From: Deltaproteobacteria bacterium
Lineage (GTDB): Bacteria; Desulfobacterota; GWC2-55-46
Direction: 5' to 3'
Assembly: GCA_016219015.1 (NCBI GenBank)
Contig: JACRCL010000031.1
Span: 22,159-86,158 of the forward strand
DNA length: 64,000 bases
Within the stretch, counting starts at the first letter, position 1; every line of letters begins with the position of its first letter. Under the pieces are notes generated by a model. The model saw nothing but the letters and a program-made list of their open reading frames with translations. It was not told the origin of the DNA and did no database searches. Below, piece by piece: positions 2,639 to 33,877 of the stretch. The position numbers and the translations under genes are program-made.

Positions 2639-4078
2639 TTAGATTAGCACGTTTCTGAGGCGCCCGTCAACCCCGGCCAGTGGAGCGTCTTTACTCGGTA
2701 TGATGAACTTGAAGGTGGCGCCCTTTTGCGCGGGCTCCACCCAGACCTTGCCGTGGTGCGCCTCCACGAAGGTCTTTACTATGCTGAGGCCCAGTCCGGC
2801 GCCGCCGGTCTTGATGCCTTCCTCGGTCTGATAGAACGCGTCGAATATCCGCTCCGCGTCAAGCGCGGAAATCCCCTTGCCGTCGTCCGCGACCGTCAGC
2901 TTGAGCCATTCGCCGCCTGACTCGACATCGACCCTCACCTCCGCCGAGGCGTACTTCATGGCGTTGCTCAAAAGGTTATAGATTATCCTCTTGAGCTTGT
3001 CCTCGTCCGCATGTATCTCCCTGTCCTCTATCGCGCCCTCGTGGTAAGGGGAGCCGTTAAGGATGAGCCTTTTGCCGGAGTGCTCGAAAGGCAGGAAGGC
3101 CTCCCTCAGCACCCTGGCGAGGCTCACCGTTGTCTTCTTGAGCGCCACCCTGCCCGACTGCGCCCGGCTGTAATCGAGTATGTCGGCGGCCATGCCGTCT
3201 ATCCTCTTCGAGGCGGAGAGAATGAGGTCGAACTTCCTCCTGTCCCTTTCCTGGAGCTCCGGGCCTATCCTGACGCGCAGGATATCGGCGTTGGCCATTA
3301 TCGTCGTAAGCGGGCCCCTTATATCATGGATAATGTGGTCGATGTAGAGCCTTCTTATCCTTTCGAGCTCCTTTTGCTTCGACATGTTGAAGGCGATCCC
3401 GAGGAAGTTCTTTATCTCGCCCCGGCCGTCCTTTATGGCGTTGATGGAAAGGAGCATGGGGACCTCGCGCCCGTCTTTGGCAAGGTTTATTATCTCGCCC
3501 TTCCAGAACCCCTTGTGCGGGTCGAGGATGTCCCTCCACATCTTCTCGTACAGCTCCTTAGTGGAGTGCTGGGACTTGAGCATCCGCGGGTTCTTTCCGA
3601 GGAGTTCCTCCCTCGTGTAGCCGTAGGTGTCGAGGAACGTCCTGTTGACGTCTATGATGTTGCCGTCCCTGTCGGTCACGGCCACGGCGTCGTTCGAGAA
3701 CCTGAATATCCTCTGGAACTCGTCCGAGAGTATCGCCGGTACTTCTTTATTGACCTCGGAGCTGAATGTGAGGATGAAGGAATAGACCTCTCCGCCGGGG
3801 CTCCTGAGCGGATAGATGGACAGGTATATATCGATGACCTCCCCGCCCTTTTTAAGCGCCTTTATCCTGCTGTTGTTTACGCCGTGGGAGGAGCGGGCGG
3901 AATCGATCAAGTACCTGTATTCATGAGCAAGACCGGGCGGGAAAAGGCGTGATACGTCCCTGCCTATGAGCTCTTCGGCCGAATAGCCGAGTATAAGCTC
4001 AAGGCCGAAGCCAAAGCGGATTATGGAGCCGCCCGTGCTGAGACTCAGGCTGCCCTCTTTTACTACGGGGTTCATCAA
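2639..4078 (-). CDS. PAS-domain sensor histidine kinase (two PAS domains, HisKA, HATPase_c)
   Basis: H-box HDIRGPLTTIMANADIL. N/G1/G2 boxes YNLLSNAMKY ... DDGKGI ... GGAGLGLSIV. Confidence 0.85.
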   Translation of the reverse strand: MMNPVVKEGSLSLSTGGSIIRFGFGLELILGYSAEELIGRDVSRLFPPGLAHEYRYLIDSARSSHGVNNSRIKALKKGGEVIDIYLSIYPLRSPGGEVYSFILTFSSEVNKEVPAILSDEFQRIFRFSNDAVAVTDRDGNIIDVNRTFLDTYGYTREELLGKNPRMLKSQHSTKELYEKMWRDILDPHKGFWKGEIINLAKDGREVPMLLSINAIKDGRGEIKNFLGIAFNMSKQKELERIRRLYIDHIIHDIRGPLTTIMANADILRVRIGPELQERDRRKFDLILSASKRIDGMAADILDYSRAQSGRVALKKTTVSLARVLREAFLPFEHSGKRLILNGSPYHEGAIEDREIHADEDKLKRIIYNLLSNAMKYASAEVRVDVESGGEWLKLTVADDGKGISALDAERIFDAFYQTEEGIKTGGAGLGLSIVKTFVEAHHGKVWVEPAQKGATFKFIIPSKDAPLAGVDGRLRNVLI

Positions 4079-4213: not shown

Positions 4214-5383
4214 TCACCCGGCGATCTCCTTCAGGAAAGACCTGCCGTTGCCTATCGGCCCCACCCCGAATATCCCGGCGAGCGTCTGTCCGAGGTCCGC
4301 GAAGGTCTCCCTCGTGCCGAGGCTGACCCTTTTAAGCCCCTTGCCGAAGGCCAGCAGAGGCACGTATTCGCGCGAGTGGTCTGTCGAGGGCGTCGTCGGG
4401 TCGCAGCCGTGGTCCGCGGTTATGAAGAGCACGTCATTTTCATTGAGCAGGGATACGGCCTCCGGCAACCTCCGGTCTATTACCTCAAGGGCCTTAGCGT
4501 AGCCCTTCGCGTCGTTCCTGTGCCCGTAAGAGGTGTCGAAGTCCACGAGGTTGGTGAATATCAGCCCCTCCTTGACCCTTTTAAGCGCATCGATGGTCTT
4601 GTCCATCCCGTCGCAGTCGCCCGTGGTGTGGACCTCCTCGGTGACCCCCTTGTGGACGAATATGTCGCCGATCTTGCCTATGCCGACCACTGGCAGGCCC
4701 TTAGCCTTTATCCTCTCTATGACGAGCTCTCCCGGAGGCTCCACGGGCCAGTCCTTCCGCCTGTCCGTGCGCTTGAACTCCCCCGGCCTTCCGATGAACG
4801 GGCGGGCTATGACCCTGCCGATATCGTACCCGTCGAGGAACCCCCTCGCTATCCTGCAGACCCTGTAAAGCTCCTCCACGGGCACGACCTCCTCGTGCGC
4901 CGCTATCTGGAAGACGCTGTCGGCCGAGGTGTAGACGATGAGCCTGCCGGTCTTCATGTGCTCGGCGCCGAACTCATCGAGGACCCCTATGCCCGAGGCG
5001 GGCATGCCCCCTAAGTACCCGTACCCGGTCTCCTTTTCAAACCTGTCCATCATCTTTTTCGGCAATCCGTTGGGAAAAGTGGCAAAGGGCTTTTTCAGAA
5101 TTATCCCGGCCATCTCCCAATGTCCCGTGGCCGTGTCTTTTCCGGGCGAGGCCTCTTTCATCCTGCCCCACGAGGCAAGGGGGGCCGCGGCCTTTTTTAC
5201 GGCGGTGACCCCTTCTATGAGCCCGAGGCCGAAGGACGAGAGGTTGGGCAGGTCTATCCCTCCTGCGGCGCGGATCATGTTATCGAGGGTGTCGCTCCCT
5301 TCGTCCTTATAGTCCCCCGCGTCGGGAAGCTCCCCGATACCCATGCCGTCGAAGACTATTATTACCGCCCTTTTCAATCCCAT
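4214..5383 (-). CDS. deoB: phosphopentomutase
   Basis: Full-length match to the DeoB / alkaline-phosphatase-like metalloenzyme family (VIIVFDGMGIGELPDAG..., ITADHGCDPT). Confidence 0.85.
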   Translation of the reverse strand: MGLKRAVIIVFDGMGIGELPDAGDYKDEGSDTLDNMIRAAGGIDLPNLSSFGLGLIEGVTAVKKAAAPLASWGRMKEASPGKDTATGHWEMAGIILKKPFATFPNGLPKKMMDRFEKETGYGYLGGMPASGIGVLDEFGAEHMKTGRLIVYTSADSVFQIAAHEEVVPVEELYRVCRIARGFLDGYDIGRVIARPFIGRPGEFKRTDRRKDWPVEPPGELVIERIKAKGLPVVGIGKIGDIFVHKGVTEEVHTTGDCDGMDKTIDALKRVKEGLIFTNLVDFDTSYGHRNDAKGYAKALEVIDRRLPEAVSLLNENDVLFITADHGCDPTTPSTDHSREYVPLLAFGKGLKRVSLGTRETFADLGQTLAGIFGVGPIGNGRSFLKEIAG

Positions 5384-6182: not shown

Positions 6183-7183
6183 AGCCTCTTTCCGCCTGAT
6201 GAAAGGAGCGCCGCGTTCTCACAGACCCCGGCCGCCCCGGTATTTTCCTTTACGAACCTTGATACGCCAGAGGGCGGCTTAATCTTATTCAGCTCGCCCG
6301 CCGAATAGAAGTCTATCGGAAGCCCCGCCTTCTTCGCGTAATCCAATAGCCCCTTCTCATGCCTCTTGATATCTATGGTGGCGAGGTTCCTTATCGAAAG
6401 CAACGACACCCCGGCCCCCTCCATCATTTTTCTTATCCCGGCCTCTATCTCCTTTTCGCCGACGCCTTTTTTGCACCCTATCCCGACGACGAACTCGCGG
6501 GGCCTCAATACAAGCGCCCTCCGCCTGTCCGCCGGCCTCAATAATTTGTCCGATATTATCGCAACCGCCTTGCGGGTGTCCTTGGGAAAGGAGGCCCTCA
6601 AGATGTAATGCCTTCCGTACGCGGCCTTTATGCGCCAGCGTCTTCCAAGGTACCTGTCAACGATAACGGCCTTATTGCCTTTAAGTATCTCCGAGTTTAT
6701 CCTTTTTATCGCTTCGGGGTTCTCTATCTTGAGCGCGAATTTCTCGCAGACATCCTCTATCGAAGGGAGATTCGAGATGTCGGTTGCCGTAGTGATAACT
6801 GGCGTGGCGTTAAAGAACGACGCAAGCTCTTTCGTGAGCCTGTTCGCCCCGCCCATATGGCCGGAGAGAAGGCTTACGGCAAACCTCCCCTTTTCATCCA
6901 TCAATACGATTGCCGGGTCAAGGTGCTTACCCTTGAGTAGCGGCGCTATCGCCCTTACGGCTATGCCCGAGGCGGATATGAAAAGCAGCGCCCTGGAGCC
7001 CTTGAACGCCGCCTTTACCTCGTGCTTAAGCCTTCCGTCCTTAAGGGCCGCTGGCCGGTGTATGACGACATCCCGGTACTTCTTTTCGAGCCTTCTGGCT
7101 AAAGCAAGACCCCTGTCCGTTATCGGGAATACGGTCAAAGGCGCGACGGGTGTGAACCTTTCAGCCATCTCAGGATTTTTCAA
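6116..7183 (-). CDS. cbiG: cobalt-precorrin-5A hydrolase
   Basis: CbiG N-, mid- and C-domain architecture. It sits between cbiF-side genes and cbiH, as in anaerobic cbi operons. Confidence 0.8.
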   Translation of the reverse strand: MKNPEMAERFTPVAPLTVFPITDRGLALARRLEKKYRDVVIHRPAALKDGRLKHEVKAAFKGSRALLFISASGIAVRAIAPLLKGKHLDPAIVLMDEKGRFAVSLLSGHMGGANRLTKELASFFNATPVITTATDISNLPSIEDVCEKFALKIENPEAIKRINSEILKGNKAVIVDRYLGRRWRIKAAYGRHYILRASFPKDTRKAVAIISDKLLRPADRRRALVLRPREFVVGIGCKKGVGEKEIEAGIRKMMEGAGVSLLSIRNLATIDIKRHEKGLLDYAKKAGLPIDFYSAGELNKIKPPSGVSRFVKENTGAAGVCENAALLSSGGKRLWRRKKRLGKITIALARAGYTS

Positions 7184-7886
7184 GCATGGTCACGACCCCT
7201 TCGAGCCTGCTGACCATCAGGTTAAAGAGGCGCTCGCCCTTCTCCACGCTCGCCTTGCCGGGGTCGCCCCAGACAGCGCCCTTCCAGTATTTCACCTTAT
7301 CCTTTACCACCATCGGCCTGGGGAATTCGGGGTATTCCTCCTTTGCCCTGCCATTGACTAACCTCGGGGCGAGGTACAATACCAAAGACGTCTCCATCTC
7401 CCCGGCGTGGGAGTCGTTCTTTGTCTCCGCTATCTCTTCGAGCTCCTTGCCGAGCACCTCGTATATCGAGAACGCCGCTATCTTAAGCCCCGGCAGCTCG
7501 CCGACCAGGTCCTCTGCCGCCTCCTTGAGCGCCGCCATGTGCAGGCCCCCGCCGTGGCCCGATACGAGGACGAAGTTCCTCAGGTCCTGCCTGAAGCCAT
7601 CCCTCACGATATCCTTAGCTATGTGCCTCAATGTCCCGGCCCTTATGCCTATGGTGCCGGGGTGCTGCGCGGTAGACGTGCATACGCCGTACTGCAGAGG
7701 CGGGGCCATGAATACCCTGTCGTTCCTTTCGGCCGTTTTTTTCACGACCTCCCTTATTATGAGGGTGTCGGTATTAAGAGGCAGGTGCGAGCCGTGCGCC
7801 TCTATTGTGCCGAAGGGGACAATCAGCGTCCGCGCCTTCCTTACGGACTTTTTGAACCCGTCCATCGTCTTCTCACCGAGTATCAT
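7170..7886 (-). CDS. creatininase (creatinine amidohydrolase) family protein
   Basis: Creatininase-fold metal-ligand pattern (FGTIEAHGSHLPLNTD, SGHGGG, HAGEMETS). Embedded in the cbi operon. Confidence 0.65.
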   Translation of the reverse strand: MILGEKTMDGFKKSVRKARTLIVPFGTIEAHGSHLPLNTDTLIIREVVKKTAERNDRVFMAPPLQYGVCTSTAQHPGTIGIRAGTLRHIAKDIVRDGFRQDLRNFVLVSGHGGGLHMAALKEAAEDLVGELPGLKIAAFSIYEVLGKELEEIAETKNDSHAGEMETSLVLYLAPRLVNGRAKEEYPEFPRPMVVKDKVKYWKGAVWGDPGKASVEKGERLFNLMVSRLEGVVTMLEKS

Positions 7887-18000: not shown

Positions 18001-18250
18001 AAATAAAAAAACCCCGCCTTCGTATGAAGGTAGGGCTCCCCAAAAAATATACCAGCCCTCACCTTCTTTACCTTCGAAGAGCCTCGTGAGGATTATCCGG
18101 GCAGGTATCCTGACTTACGGCTTCGTCCTAATCTCCGCGCCTTCCCGGCTTGAGGCCAGTGGCGGTTTGCGGATTTCGTAGCCGATTACAGTGGCGGGTC
18201 CGTTCCCGAATCTCTGCTCAAGCAGACCACGGGATTCCCTTTTAGCCCCT
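18001..18250 (-). promoter_or_regulatory. cobalamin (AdoCbl) riboswitch with terminator-type expression platform, heading the cbi operon
   Basis: The minus strand reads AAAAGGGAATCCCGTGG...GACCCGCCACTGTAA...GCCACTGGCCTCAAGCCGGGAAGGCG. This matches the B12-box and conserved GGGAA/GCCACTG core. A hairpin plus T7 run follows at about 18001-18040. Confidence 0.8.
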
Positions 18251-18357
18251 TGGCGGGCCACCCGGACAAGCTGTTAAATGATTACATTTCAGTGCAGGCA
18301 AGTCAATACAAATCAAAATGGCGGGACCCCCGGTCCCGCCATCTAATAGCATATATG

Positions 18358-29928: not shown

Positions 29929-30780
29929 ATGAACCCTATAGCGTTCAGGGCCACCCTCATAAACATAATCGGGAACACATCCCTTTTCGCTCTTAAATTG
30001 ACGGCCGGGCTCCTCTCCGGCAGCATCGCGCTCATTTCCGACGCCCTCAACTCTTTCAACGACATAGCCGCGGCCATAGCCACCTTCATCTGCGTAAAGA
30101 TATCCGACAAGGCGGCGGACGAGGGACACCCCTTCGGCCATAACAGGGCCGAGCCTATCGCCGGGCTCATAATAGCGGTACTCGCCGGCATACTCGGGTT
30201 CGAGATGATAAGGGAGGCGATAGAGCGGATCCTCATGGGCACGAAGGCCGAGATCAGCTTATTTACCCTCCTCGTCCCCGTGGTCACCATGGTGACGAAA
30301 GGGCTCATGTCCTGGCACTTCCGCAGGGTCGGCAGGATGTTCAACAGCCCCGCCCTTACGGCGACGGCCCTCGACTCCCTGATGGACGTGCTCGTGGCCG
30401 TGGCGGTGCTCGTCGGCATCGCTGGGGTGAGGCTCGGGTGGGGCTTCCTGGACCCGATGGCGGCGTTCGTGATAAGCCTCTGGATAATCTATACGGGCTA
30501 CAGGATAGGGCTGGAGAACATAGCTTATCTGATGGGGCAGGCGCCTTCGCCCGAGATGCTCGAAGAGATACGGAGGGCGGCCCTGGACGTGAATGGAGTA
30601 AAGGCCCTTGATAAGGTCAAGGCCCATTATGTCGGGAACTTCATCCACGTGGAAATACATATAGAGGTGAATAAGGACCTCTCCACCCTCGAATCCCACG
30701 CCATAGGCGAGGAGGTCGAAAGGAGGGTTGAGAGCATCGGGCTCATAGATAAATCATTCGTCCATATAAACCCGGCCTGA
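29929..30780 (+). CDS. cation diffusion facilitator family transporter (FieF-like)
   Basis: LALISDALNSFND ... HPFGHNRAEPIAGL. 6 TM plus a cytoplasmic C-terminal domain. Confidence 0.85.
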   Translation: MNPIAFRATLINIIGNTSLFALKLTAGLLSGSIALISDALNSFNDIAAAIATFICVKISDKAADEGHPFGHNRAEPIAGLIIAVLAGILGFEMIREAIERILMGTKAEISLFTLLVPVVTMVTKGLMSWHFRRVGRMFNSPALTATALDSLMDVLVAVAVLVGIAGVRLGWGFLDPMAAFVISLWIIYTGYRIGLENIAYLMGQAPSPEMLEEIRRAALDVNGVKALDKVKAHYVGNFIHVEIHIEVNKDLSTLESHAIGEEVERRVESIGLIDKSFVHINPA

Positions 30781-32427: not shown

Positions 32428-32630
32428 TAGCAGTTAATGTCTTAAACCAAACCCCCTATCCCTCCATCCCTTTTTCTCCCGAACCTGACAAATGTCATAT
32501 TTAACCCCTCTATTTTATTCACTTTTTTTGGGTTTACCTCTAACCTGCCCTTAATCTCTATGTAGTATAATGGAATCAAGATAAGAACGAAAAACGAACT
32601 CTAACGATTTAGCTTACAGGAGGTGGAAAG

Positions 32631-32735
32631 ATGGAAAGGGACAAGAAGATAGCGAACGCGATATATGTCGGTGTAGCGGTTCTCTTTACGACGATAATGC
32701 TCGCCGGGGCCTCGCTTCCCGGATACTGGGCGTAA
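32631..32735 (+). CDS. micropeptide 1 of a tandem paralogous trio (34 aa, single TM)
   Basis: MERDKKIANAIYVGVAVLFTTIMLAGASLPGYWA. GGAGGTGGAAAG-ATG RBS. TATAAT -10 at 32569-32574. Not in the ORF track (below the 60 aa cutoff). Confidence 0.5.
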   Translation: MERDKKIANAIYVGVAVLFTTIMLAGASLPGYWA

Positions 32736-32912
32736 CCTTAAAGCTACCTCTAAAAATTGTTCTTTTTCCTGATCTCTGTGTCAGGGCAAAAATAAAAATG
32801 CTCACATATTACCATATATGCTCCGCTTTTTATTTCCGCCCTTCCTTGACCTCAGAAAAAATTCCTAATTTTTAGAGGCACCCTTAAAAAAACTTTAACG
32901 GAGGATAAAAAA

Positions 32913-33017
32913 ATGGAAAAGGAAATAAAGATAGCCAACGGGTTCTACGTGGGAGTGACGGCGTTCCTTACCGCGGTCATGCTCTTCTCAGGCAATATCA
33001 CCGGGTACCTGGCGTAA
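32913..33017 (+). CDS. micropeptide 2 (34 aa, single TM)
   Basis: MEKEIKIANGFYVGVTAFLTAVMLFSGNITGYLA. RBS GGAGGATAAAAAA-ATG. Confidence 0.5.
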   Translation: MEKEIKIANGFYVGVTAFLTAVMLFSGNITGYLA

Positions 33018-33042
33018 GGTTTTTTTCAAGGAGGTGATTGGA

Positions 33043-33162
33043 ATGGACAGGGAAAAGAAGATAGCCAACGCGTTATACATCGGGATAGCGGCCCTTTTGA
33101 CCACGGCGATGCTCGCGGGAGCGCTCCTGCTGCCGCGCATGCCTCAGGGGTTCTTCGCGTAG
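33043..33162 (+). CDS. micropeptide 3 (39 aa, single TM)
   Basis: MDREKKIANALYIGIAALLTTAMLAGALLLPRMPQGFFA. RBS GGAGGTGATTGGA-ATG, 25 nt after peptide 2. Confidence 0.5.
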   Translation: MDREKKIANALYIGIAALLTTAMLAGALLLPRMPQGFFA

Positions 33163-33175
33163 GCTTTAAAAAGTA

Positions 33176-33213
33176 AAAAGGAGGGCGGCTTTTAGCCTCC
33201 CTCCTTTTTTTTT
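33176..33213. terminator. strong bidirectional intrinsic terminator closing the micropeptide locus and the convergent DJ-1 gene
   Basis: AAAAAGGAGGGCGGCttttaGCCTCCCTCCTTTTTTTTTT. Confidence 0.8.
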
Positions 33214-33223
33214 ATTTTAAAAT

Positions 33224-33772
33224 TTACACCTTCGCCAATACCCCCTTATTCACCTCTCTTGCCTTTTCCTGCCCGAAGAGCGCCTCCACAAGCCTGAACG
33301 CGAACTCCATCGCGGTACCCGGCCCCTGGCTCGTGATCATGTTACCGTCCACCACGACCCTTTCGTCAGAGACCCGTTCATTCCTCAACTCGTCCCTTAC
33401 GGACGGATGGCTCGTTATCCTCCGCCCCTCTATCGCCCCCATGGCCGAGAGTACCGTCGGGGCGGCGCATATCGCCGTCACAAGCCCCTTCTTCTTTATA
33501 AGGCCCTCAATCACTTTCCTTACGCTGGCGTCCTTCTTGAGGTTCTCCGCCCCCACCGCCCCGCCGGGCAGGACTATCATGTCGAAGTCCGTGCCCGCGA
33601 CCTCGTCCATCAGCCCGTCCGTCAGGACCTTTATCCTGCTCCGGCCCTCCACAGGGCCCTGGACGGTCCCTGCCACGACGACCTCGGCCCCCGCCCTCCT
33701 TAATATATCAACGACCGTCAGCGCCTCTATCTCCTCGAAACCGGGCGCAAGCGGCACCAGGACCTTCTTCAT
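33224..33772 (-). CDS. DJ-1/PfpI family protein (class I glutamine amidotransferase-like)
   Basis: Nucleophile elbow AICAAP. Start MKKVLVP has an AAGGAGG RBS. The ORF-track extension MCRRFPFKGGL translates the repeat. Confidence 0.85.
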   Translation of the reverse strand: MKKVLVPLAPGFEEIEALTVVDILRRAGAEVVVAGTVQGPVEGRSRIKVLTDGLMDEVAGTDFDMIVLPGGAVGAENLKKDASVRKVIEGLIKKKGLVTAICAAPTVLSAMGAIEGRRITSHPSVRDELRNERVSDERVVVDGNMITSQGPGTAMEFAFRLVEALFGQEKAREVNKGVLAKV

Positions 33773-33783
33773 AAGACCTCCTT

Positions 33784-33877
33784 TGAATGGGAATCTTCGA
33801 CACAAAAGGAAAAAATTTCGATTCGCTCGCTAAACCCCGCCGCAAGCAGCGGGGAATGCGCTCGCTGTGCGTGTTCA
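33784..33877 (-). repeat. family C element copy 4 (lacks the promoter-distal... actually gene-proximal hairpin; the 3' end supplies the AAGGAGG RBS context of the DJ-1 gene)
   Basis: TGAATGGGAATCTTCGACACAAAAGGAAAAAATTTCGATTCGCTCGCTAAACCCCGCCGCAAGCAGCGGGGAATGCGCTCGCTGTGCGTGTTCA. Identical to copy 2 except for a 20-nt hairpin deletion. Confidence 0.85.

Follow-up and report, generated by a model that had tools for sequence, protein, structure and literature searches.

We report three short genes, here called p1, p2 and p3, that lie in tandem on the plus strand of a 64,000-nucleotide stretch of DNA of a Deltaproteobacteria bacterium (assembly GCA_016219015.1, contig JACRCL010000031.1). The whole stretch is referred to as the window, and positions are those of the window unless a related locus is named. 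The region 32482-33213 appears to form a self-contained transcription unit, in which a promoter that probably depends on an activator precedes three cistrons and a bidirectional terminator closes the unit. An earlier reading of the sequence (the original prediction) had proposed three translated micropeptide genes, each with a single transmembrane (TM) segment, in a transcription unit of their own, and the conservation of promoter, terminator and reading frames in related loci supports this proposal. The function that fits best, and to which we give about an even chance, is that of signal-induced small membrane proteins with the N-terminus inside and the C-terminus outside (N-in/C-out) that probably serve as non-enzymatic membrane modulators.

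The three open reading frames (ORFs) were found with the translations originally given, and the resemblance between p1, p2 and p3 is far beyond chance. In a tblastn comparison covering the 64-kb window, p1 matched p3 with an E-value of 1e-10 (69% identity over 29 amino acids (aa)) and p2 with an E-value of 1e-7 (47%), while p2 matched p3 with an E-value of 6e-6. No further copy was found in the window, the next best match having an E-value of ~0.2-0.8. All three ATG codons are preceded by a GGAGG-type ribosome-binding site at the canonical spacing that had been predicted, with a distance between GGAGG and ATG of 7 nucleotides (nt) for p1 and 8 nt for both p2 and p3. The start of p3 was placed at the ATG at 33043 and not at the GTG at 33034 chosen by the ORF lister, because the latter codon lies within the Shine-Dalgarno (SD) sequence and the homologues all start with M-D/E.

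Evidence for coding came from the ratio of nonsynonymous to synonymous substitution (dN/dS, determined by the Nei-Gojobori method), which we calculated among the paralogs and in comparisons with related loci (indicated by L-numbers). Between p1 and its orthologue in L008 (97% identical) four of the five differences are found at codon position 3 and dN/dS is 0.07. The value is 0.16 for p2 and its L008 orthologue, and for p3 it is 0.17 in the comparison with L002/L011 and 0.31 in that with L012. The paralogs also differ mostly at third codon positions (dN/dS 0.2-0.6). The claim that conservation acts at the level of the protein while synonymous positions diverge is thus borne out, with orthologue differences concentrated at codon position 3 and dN/dS values of 0.07-0.31. 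The reading frames, the ATG and the GGAGG were intact in 32 of the 32 related loci compared, down to an amino-acid identity of ~45%, and an indel that breaks the frame while nucleotide identity is retained was seen in none of them. Given that no frame is disrupted and that dN/dS stays far below 1, we consider it nearly certain that the three ORFs are genuine protein-coding genes. The opposite view holds that the ORFs are untranslated and that a non-coding RNA or a repeat is what has been conserved. It could appeal to the fact that the ORFs are short and skipped by many annotation pipelines. It is hardly credible in view of the low dN/dS, the substitutions at third codon positions and the preservation of frames, starts and GGAGG boxes over large distances. 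Moreover, the mRNA shows no significant structure except for the terminator and an insert resembling a miniature inverted-repeat transposable element (MITE), and no Rfam family matches.

The locus was originally described as looking empty in the ORF track. No source gives a name to the genes (the only label of the relatives in any source is 'hypothetical protein'), but some public pipelines do call these ORFs: a public Logan assembly has a gene call for a protein identical to p1, and P0002, a close relative of p2, is present in ENA. The Logan assembly also contains a call for a 45-aa ORF with a TTG start on the minus strand (L001 3252-3389, corresponding to 32442-32579 in the window). This ORF was rejected and is probably spurious: it overlaps the promoter, the region is not conserved in L002 and the product is not hydrophobic.

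To delineate the family we used a HMMER profile of the three peptides. An exhaustive search of 1.84 billion representative proteins yielded 13 matches at E <= 1e-3, and a separate search of 5.8 billion proteins yielded about 28 clusters at 90% identity. The relatives are 33-39 aa long, with the exception of one 60-aa gene call that reads through the leader, and their hosts are all uncultured 'Deltaproteobacteria bacterium' metagenome-assembled genomes (MAGs). Two family loci were found among species-representative genomes, both in 'Deltaproteobacteria bacterium' MAGs, one of which is from groundwater, and a metagenome scan added only two extra loci, both of a lineage already found. The SucC protein encoded in the window matches without any difference an NCBI entry assigned to a 'MAG: Deltaproteobacteria bacterium', and the nearest relatives of this SucC are labelled, for instance, Deltaproteobacteria bacterium GWA2_54_12, GWC2_56_8 and GWC2_55_46, or Thermodesulfobacteriota bacterium. 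Judging from these searches, the family is rare and unnamed, and does not extend beyond a single uncultured clade of 'Deltaproteobacteria bacterium' genomes (Thermodesulfobacteriota). The tblastn and profile searches across related genomes that had been suggested as a check thus recovered homologues, with intact frames in all loci.

The peptides had also been said to fit no family that could be named (KdpF, CydX, AcrZ and MgtS had been considered), and the hidden Markov model (HMM) and profile searches, which cover these families as well as entericidin and others, were indeed empty. With the three peptides and three distant members as queries there was no match in Pfam-A or NCBIfam at E <= 10, nor in PADLOC. 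A profile search of the PDB gave only noise (E > 2), PHROG gave only weak matches (E >= 0.001) to a different unknown family for each peptide, and a literature search by accession numbers returned nothing relevant. Rfam gave nothing at the gathering threshold on the window locus or on ten related loci, and at E <= 1 the sub-threshold matches on the locus were solely to the terminator hairpin. Neither a contig scan nor tblastn detected relatives in viral contigs, plasmids or phage records, so that there is no sign of a cargo gene of mobile elements.

The consensus of the family is M-D/E-R-E-x-K-I-A-N-x-x-Y-I-x-V-x-V-x-L-T-T-x-M-L-x-G-A-...-P-x-S-F-F/Y-A, in which M1, Y12 and M23 are invariant and E4, A8, T20, L24, G26 and P34 are conserved at 83-93%. 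The charged N-terminal motif and the TM core, and not the C-terminus, are the most conserved portions. A hydrophobic core spans approximately residues 10-30 (mean Kyte-Doolittle hydropathy over 19 residues of 1.7-2.6), and the summed energy on the Hessa scale is near or below 0 for a core of 17-18 residues. In line with this single segment, AlphaFold2 supplied with the family alignment returned one continuous helix of residues 3-32 (mean pLDDT, the predicted confidence per residue, of 89.8), which agrees with the charged N-terminus followed by one hydrophobic helix of the original prediction. The flank on the N-terminal side contains 2-4 lysines and arginines and that on the C-terminal side 0-1. 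Following the positive-inside rule, we predict from this excess that the proteins are single-pass membrane peptides with an N-in/C-out orientation. They lack Cys, have a net charge of ~0 to +2 and are without leader or cleavage motif. In L023 a divergent paralog of 62 aa (344-532) was observed just 3' of a 36-aa family gene; it has kept the Y-I-G-V...TM core and carries a polar C-terminal extension of 30 residues.

Another important finding was that the family genes share a promoter module. Alignment of the upstream regions on the -10 box yielded the consensus tcTAAy-N7-cCTTAAT-N10-TATAATGG, followed after 4-6 nt by a conserved CA, which is the likely transcription start (~32578 in the window). 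The core TAAY-N7-TAAT-N10-TATAATGG was conserved in nine independent lineages or copies, including two extra loci of the MAG that contains L002. In the window its elements start at 32541 (TAAC), 32552 (TAAT) and 32566 (TATAAT). The repeats have a period of 11 bp (10 in L011) and end 10 nt before TATAAT (11 in L013/L031). A permissive regular expression for the module, applied to 285 kb on both strands, gave 26 matches, all 26 directly upstream of family genes, and the single match in the window compares with 0 expected by chance. No TTGACA-like -35 hexamer was present at 16-18 nt from TATAAT, which explains why a simple sigma-70 scan had missed the box. The predicted TATAAT promoter therefore stands as far as the box is concerned, which is conserved, but its position is 32566-32571 and not 32569-32574 (3 nt further upstream), and it is not a plain sigma-70 promoter. 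That the cassette must have a promoter of its own follows from L013, in which the intrinsic terminator of the upstream gene immediately precedes the module. From these features we infer an activator-dependent promoter with OmpR/PhoB-type class II geometry, and the occurrence of one shared module that has no -35 box in every independent copy suggests a dedicated activator.

The conserved cassette is bounded on the left by a perfect palindrome, TGACAAATGTCA, which occurs once in the window when no mismatches are allowed. It was conserved in L008 and also in L002 and L011, despite the different genomic site of the latter two. A variant TGAC-N4-GTCA is found upstream in L013/L031, and the palindrome is absent from L028 and L012. 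It is possible that it constitutes a second regulator site or that it is part of an upstream promoter, CTGACA-N18-TCTATT.

The leader and start region of the mRNA is no more structured than shuffled controls, with folding z-scores of -0.35 in the window and of -1.19, +0.76 and +1.38 in three other lineages. In the centroid structures the SD takes no part in base pairing, which argues that it is not sequestered. At the other end of the unit, the very strong bidirectional terminator of the original prediction was recovered: it folds on both strands (-26.6 kcal/mol on the plus strand, -25.4 kcal/mol on the minus strand, z ~-3.8), has U9 after the stem on the plus strand and an A-run before it, and has been preserved in L008, L002 and L011, where compensatory changes are seen. 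A simple terminator scan had missed it in the window because of one C/U mismatch in the stem; the orthologous terminator of L008, which has a perfect stem, was flagged on both strands. The coordinates of all features are collected in Table 1.

Table 1. Features of the p1-p2-p3 locus (window positions).
Feature	Position	Strand	Remarks
Perfect palindrome TGACAAATGTCA	32486-32497	+	Marks left boundary of cassette; putative regulator site
Direct repeats CTCTAACC and CCTTAATC	32538-32556	+	11 bp apart, in -35 position; candidate operator of an activator (response-regulator type)
-10 box TATAAT with conserved GG discriminator	32566-32573	+	Invariant across divergent loci
5' leader	32578-32630	+	A-rich, unstructured; SD GGAGG 32619-32623
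p1	32631-32735	+	34 aa, MERDKKIANAIYVGVAVLFTTIMLAGASLPGYWA
MITE-like insertion between p1 and p2	32744-32880		Inverted repeats, CCTTAAA flanks, empty site
p2	32913-33017	+	34 aa, MEKEIKIANGFYVGVTAFLTAVMLFSGNITGYLA; SD GGAGG 32900-32904
p3	33043-33162	+	39 aa, MDREKKIANALYIGIAALLTTAMLAGALLLPRMPQGFFA; SD GGAGG 33030-33034
Bidirectional intrinsic terminator	33175-33213	both	Common to convergent DJ-1/PfpI gene (33224-33805, minus strand)

The spacers between the genes had been described as divergent, but the long one between p1 and p2 owes its length to a MITE-like insertion that is absent from L008, and not to diverged sequence. The gap measures 177 nt in the window versus 32 nt in the empty site of L008, which gives an insertion of ~145 nt, and 137 nt of it (32744-32880) match copies elsewhere. 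The insert has inverted ends of 21 nt (32738-32758 and 32867-32887, 86% complementary) with CCTTAAA on both sides, and its predicted structure is a long hairpin (-38.6 kcal/mol, z = -7.2). Copies that are 89% identical were found in the distant lineages L017-L020 and L024 (e.g. L017 4995-5131 and L024 ~343-548), and a footprint is present in L023 (273-291). Three lineages have a copy no more than 1 kb away from a family gene, perhaps because the element prefers the AT-rich sequences on either side of these cassettes. No transposase partner for the insert was identified. Since the hairpin is not followed by a U-run, it is plausible that transcription reads through the insert into p2 and p3.

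The number of copies and their genomic position vary considerably. There are three copies in the window and in L008, two in L002, L011, L013 and L031, and one in L012, L017, L021 and L025. A genome may contain several loci, for instance MAG GCA_040961615.1, which has the pair of L002 and two further copies on another contig (L028, at 3313-3420 and 5001-5120), each with its own promoter module and with an arginase gene in between. In the window and L008 the cassette is located between uvrD and the DJ-1 gene. In L002 and L011 the conserved unit, from palindrome to terminator, is found 2.5 kb away, between a gene for a DUF255 thioredoxin-like protein and a gene for a 407-aa protein. On the basis of this comparison the cassette has moved, and no remnant of it was detected when the alternative site was searched. 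The more distant members have unrelated neighbours, which include genes for a UbiE-type methyltransferase accompanied by a CDF transporter, an OprO/P porin, YfhO, response-regulator proteins and an Mrp/ApbC ATPase. In L008 we also observed a GC-rich segment of ~700 nt between uvrD and the cassette (6855-7520), which has no counterpart in the window and for which no Rfam match was found. The uvrD-DJ-1 spacer of L002 contains GC-rich sequence related to it (4900-5050), GGGCGAGCGGGGCGGAAGG...GGCTCGCCCGG...GGAGGCTGTAGGGAGCC.

These contexts bear on the possibility that the peptides, like KdpF, CydX, CcoM and PetN, serve a membrane complex whose genes lie elsewhere, either as constitutive supernumerary subunits or as assembly factors, with the paralogs serving different isoforms of that complex. 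In length and topology the peptides resemble known small subunits, and the invariant Y12 and M23 and the near-invariant T20, L24 and G26 in the helix suggest specific packing. In addition, CDF genes occur near the peptides in two unrelated contexts, i.e. the window (29929-30780) and L013/L031 (6462-7079 and 4203-4820, respectively), although this proximity may be coincidental. Known small subunits are nearly always encoded within the operon of their complex. The genes described here, by contrast, stand alone, are mobile, occur in 1-3 copies per locus and have no conserved neighbour, their specialised and apparently activator-dependent promoter differs from co-transcription with a complex, and the HMM searches revealed no resemblance to families such as KdpF and CydX. 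We therefore regard a role as constitutive subunit as unlikely. Even less can be said for exported leaderless bacteriocins or precursors of ribosomally synthesised and post-translationally modified peptides, acting as a multi-peptide set. The tandem short paralogs do resemble multi-peptide leaderless bacteriocin loci, and the copy at 3313-3420 in L028 immediately follows a B12-binding radical SAM gene. Nevertheless, the ~10 contexts have no adjacent gene for transport, immunity or modification in common, the near-neutral peptides lack Cys and any leader or cleavage motif, and their conservation is greatest in the charged N-terminus and the TM core instead of in a C-terminal core peptide, which makes this explanation very improbable.

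The most serious competing explanation, although we hold it to be unlikely as well, is that the genes encode membrane-damaging peptides of the dormancy type, similar to the type I toxins TisB, Hok, Ldr and Ibs or to YohP. Under stress, such peptides would assemble into oligomers, depolarise the membrane and slow down growth; they would be held back mainly by tight control of transcription or by a trans-acting RNA that escaped detection. The size of 34-39 aa with one hydrophobic helix would suit such a role, and so would the multicopy, tandem and dispersed occurrence in one genome (as in the ldr, ibs, hok and zor families), the stand-alone cassette with its own promoter and terminator in a neighbourhood that is not conserved, and the narrow distribution over one clade. 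The hallmarks of type I toxins are an RNA antitoxin that pairs with the toxin mRNA, and a toxin mRNA that needs processing or refolding before it can be translated (PMC12648545). Here, however, the leaders are unstructured with open SDs (z -1.2 to +1.4 in four lineages), no antisense promoter-like site recurs across lineages, and the spacers between p2 and p3 and between p1 and p2 of L008 are just 25-32 nt, which leaves no room for separate regulatory RNAs. There is also no Rfam match and no plasmid or phage copy, and the charge resides at the N-terminus, with a net value of ~0 to +2. No signal of an adjacent or antisense RNA antitoxin was found at the locus or in related lineages, but an RNA encoded in trans elsewhere in the genome may exist. 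The type I toxin-like architecture of the original prediction is consequently not supported: the leader is unstructured, an antisense promoter is not conserved, and p2 and p3 are packed as in an ordinary operon. One could also imagine a clade-specific, dispersed regulon of membrane-depolarising peptides for dormancy or defence, controlled at the level of transcription only and lacking an RNA antitoxin, in which one activator reads TAAY-N7-TAAT and copy number changes fast by tandem duplication and relocation. We consider this rather improbable.

This brings us back to the explanation that we favour, i.e. that of signal-induced membrane modulators. Most characterised bacterial proteins below 50 aa with one TM helix are either stress-induced modulators of larger membrane proteins or membrane toxins (PMC12648545). 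In our proposal a dedicated activator would read the TAAY/TAAT repeats with an OmpR/PhoB-like geometry and switch on the operon in response to a specific signal; that the peptides would be made upon such a signal follows from reading the module as the operator of this activator. The open, A-rich leaders and strong SDs would then allow efficient translation, and the peptides would insert in the cytoplasmic membrane with the charged N-terminus in the cytoplasm and the short aromatic C-terminal tail outside. There they would act without catalysis, by binding a larger membrane protein (e.g. a sensor kinase, a transporter or a channel) or each other, with a mode of action like that of MgrB, MgtS, PmrR and AcrZ.

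Several observations weigh against this explanation. The first concerns the promoter: in one lineage, to which L017 (5925-6000), L018-L020, L026 and L027 belong, the intergenic region measures only ~74 nt and TATAATGG is kept while the TAAY/TAAT repeats are missing, an arrangement that, from the alignment, we take as a natural variant of the module in which the repeats were lost. Secondly, no cognate regulator gene was identified: a DNA-binding regulator is not conserved near the cassettes, and the response regulator encoded next to the L025 copy consists of a receiver only, without a DNA-binding domain. Similarly, no conserved neighbour was found across ~10 gene contexts, so that the gene neighbourhood does not imply any partner protein. 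A conserved face of the helix was not found either: conserved positions do not cluster (conservation moment 0.06, equalled by 37% of the shuffles), and there is thus no positive sign of a helix-helix interface. Finally, multicopy and rapidly duplicating hydrophobic peptides are typical of toxins too.

The locus adds a well-supported and previously unnamed family to the bacterial small membrane proteins, a kind of protein that is itself already known. Its hosts form an uncultured Thermodesulfobacteriota clade from groundwater and sediment in which small proteins are essentially unexplored. The family offers an unusually clean regulatory handle, namely one promoter module that is exclusive to its members, and it varies naturally in position and in the number of copies per locus (1-3), which together make it a tractable case to study how new small membrane proteins arise, duplicate and join a regulon. 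It is also a concrete example of annotation leaving such loci unnamed, and does not overturn a current concept. Elsewhere in the window, on the minus strand, we observed a Moco/tungsten riboswitch (2510-2633, 66 bits) and a cobalamin riboswitch (18083-18280, 106 bits).

Among known systems, the enterobacterial modulators MgrB, MgtS, PmrR, SafA and AcrZ are encoded by stand-alone genes with regulated promoters and act by binding a larger membrane protein (PMC12648545). The proteins described here are like them in having less than 50 aa, one predicted TM helix and no enzymatic domain, and in being encoded by a stand-alone gene. In their promoter, direct repeats spaced at 11 bp take the place of the -35 box, as in OmpR/PhoB-type class II activation. 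They differ in that they show no sequence similarity to the enterobacterial modulators, that their genes are tandem and dispersed in multiple copies, which is unusual for these regulators, and that their hosts are uncultured Thermodesulfobacteriota. With the type I toxins TisB, Hok, Ldr, Ibs and Zor, and with YohP, a depolarising peptide that is not part of a toxin-antitoxin system, they share the short hydrophobic single helix. Multicopy or tandem families and a narrow taxonomic range are further points in common with these systems, which often have stress-controlled promoters. Unlike in those systems, however, no signal of an antisense or nearby small RNA was found, the SD is exposed in an unstructured leader and three cistrons are combined in one operon. 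Size, single TM helix and conserved intramembrane residues also recall KdpF, CydX/CydS and CcoM, whereas the genes described here are not in the operon of a complex, vary in copy number and position, and have no HMM match. The likeness extends to the uncharacterised small-protein families from metagenomes, which are equally lineage-restricted and unnamed, have a predicted TM segment and were recognised via conservation and purifying selection. Beyond what holds for such families, a family-specific promoter module and the mobility of the cassette were documented here, and these two are the most distinctive features of the family.

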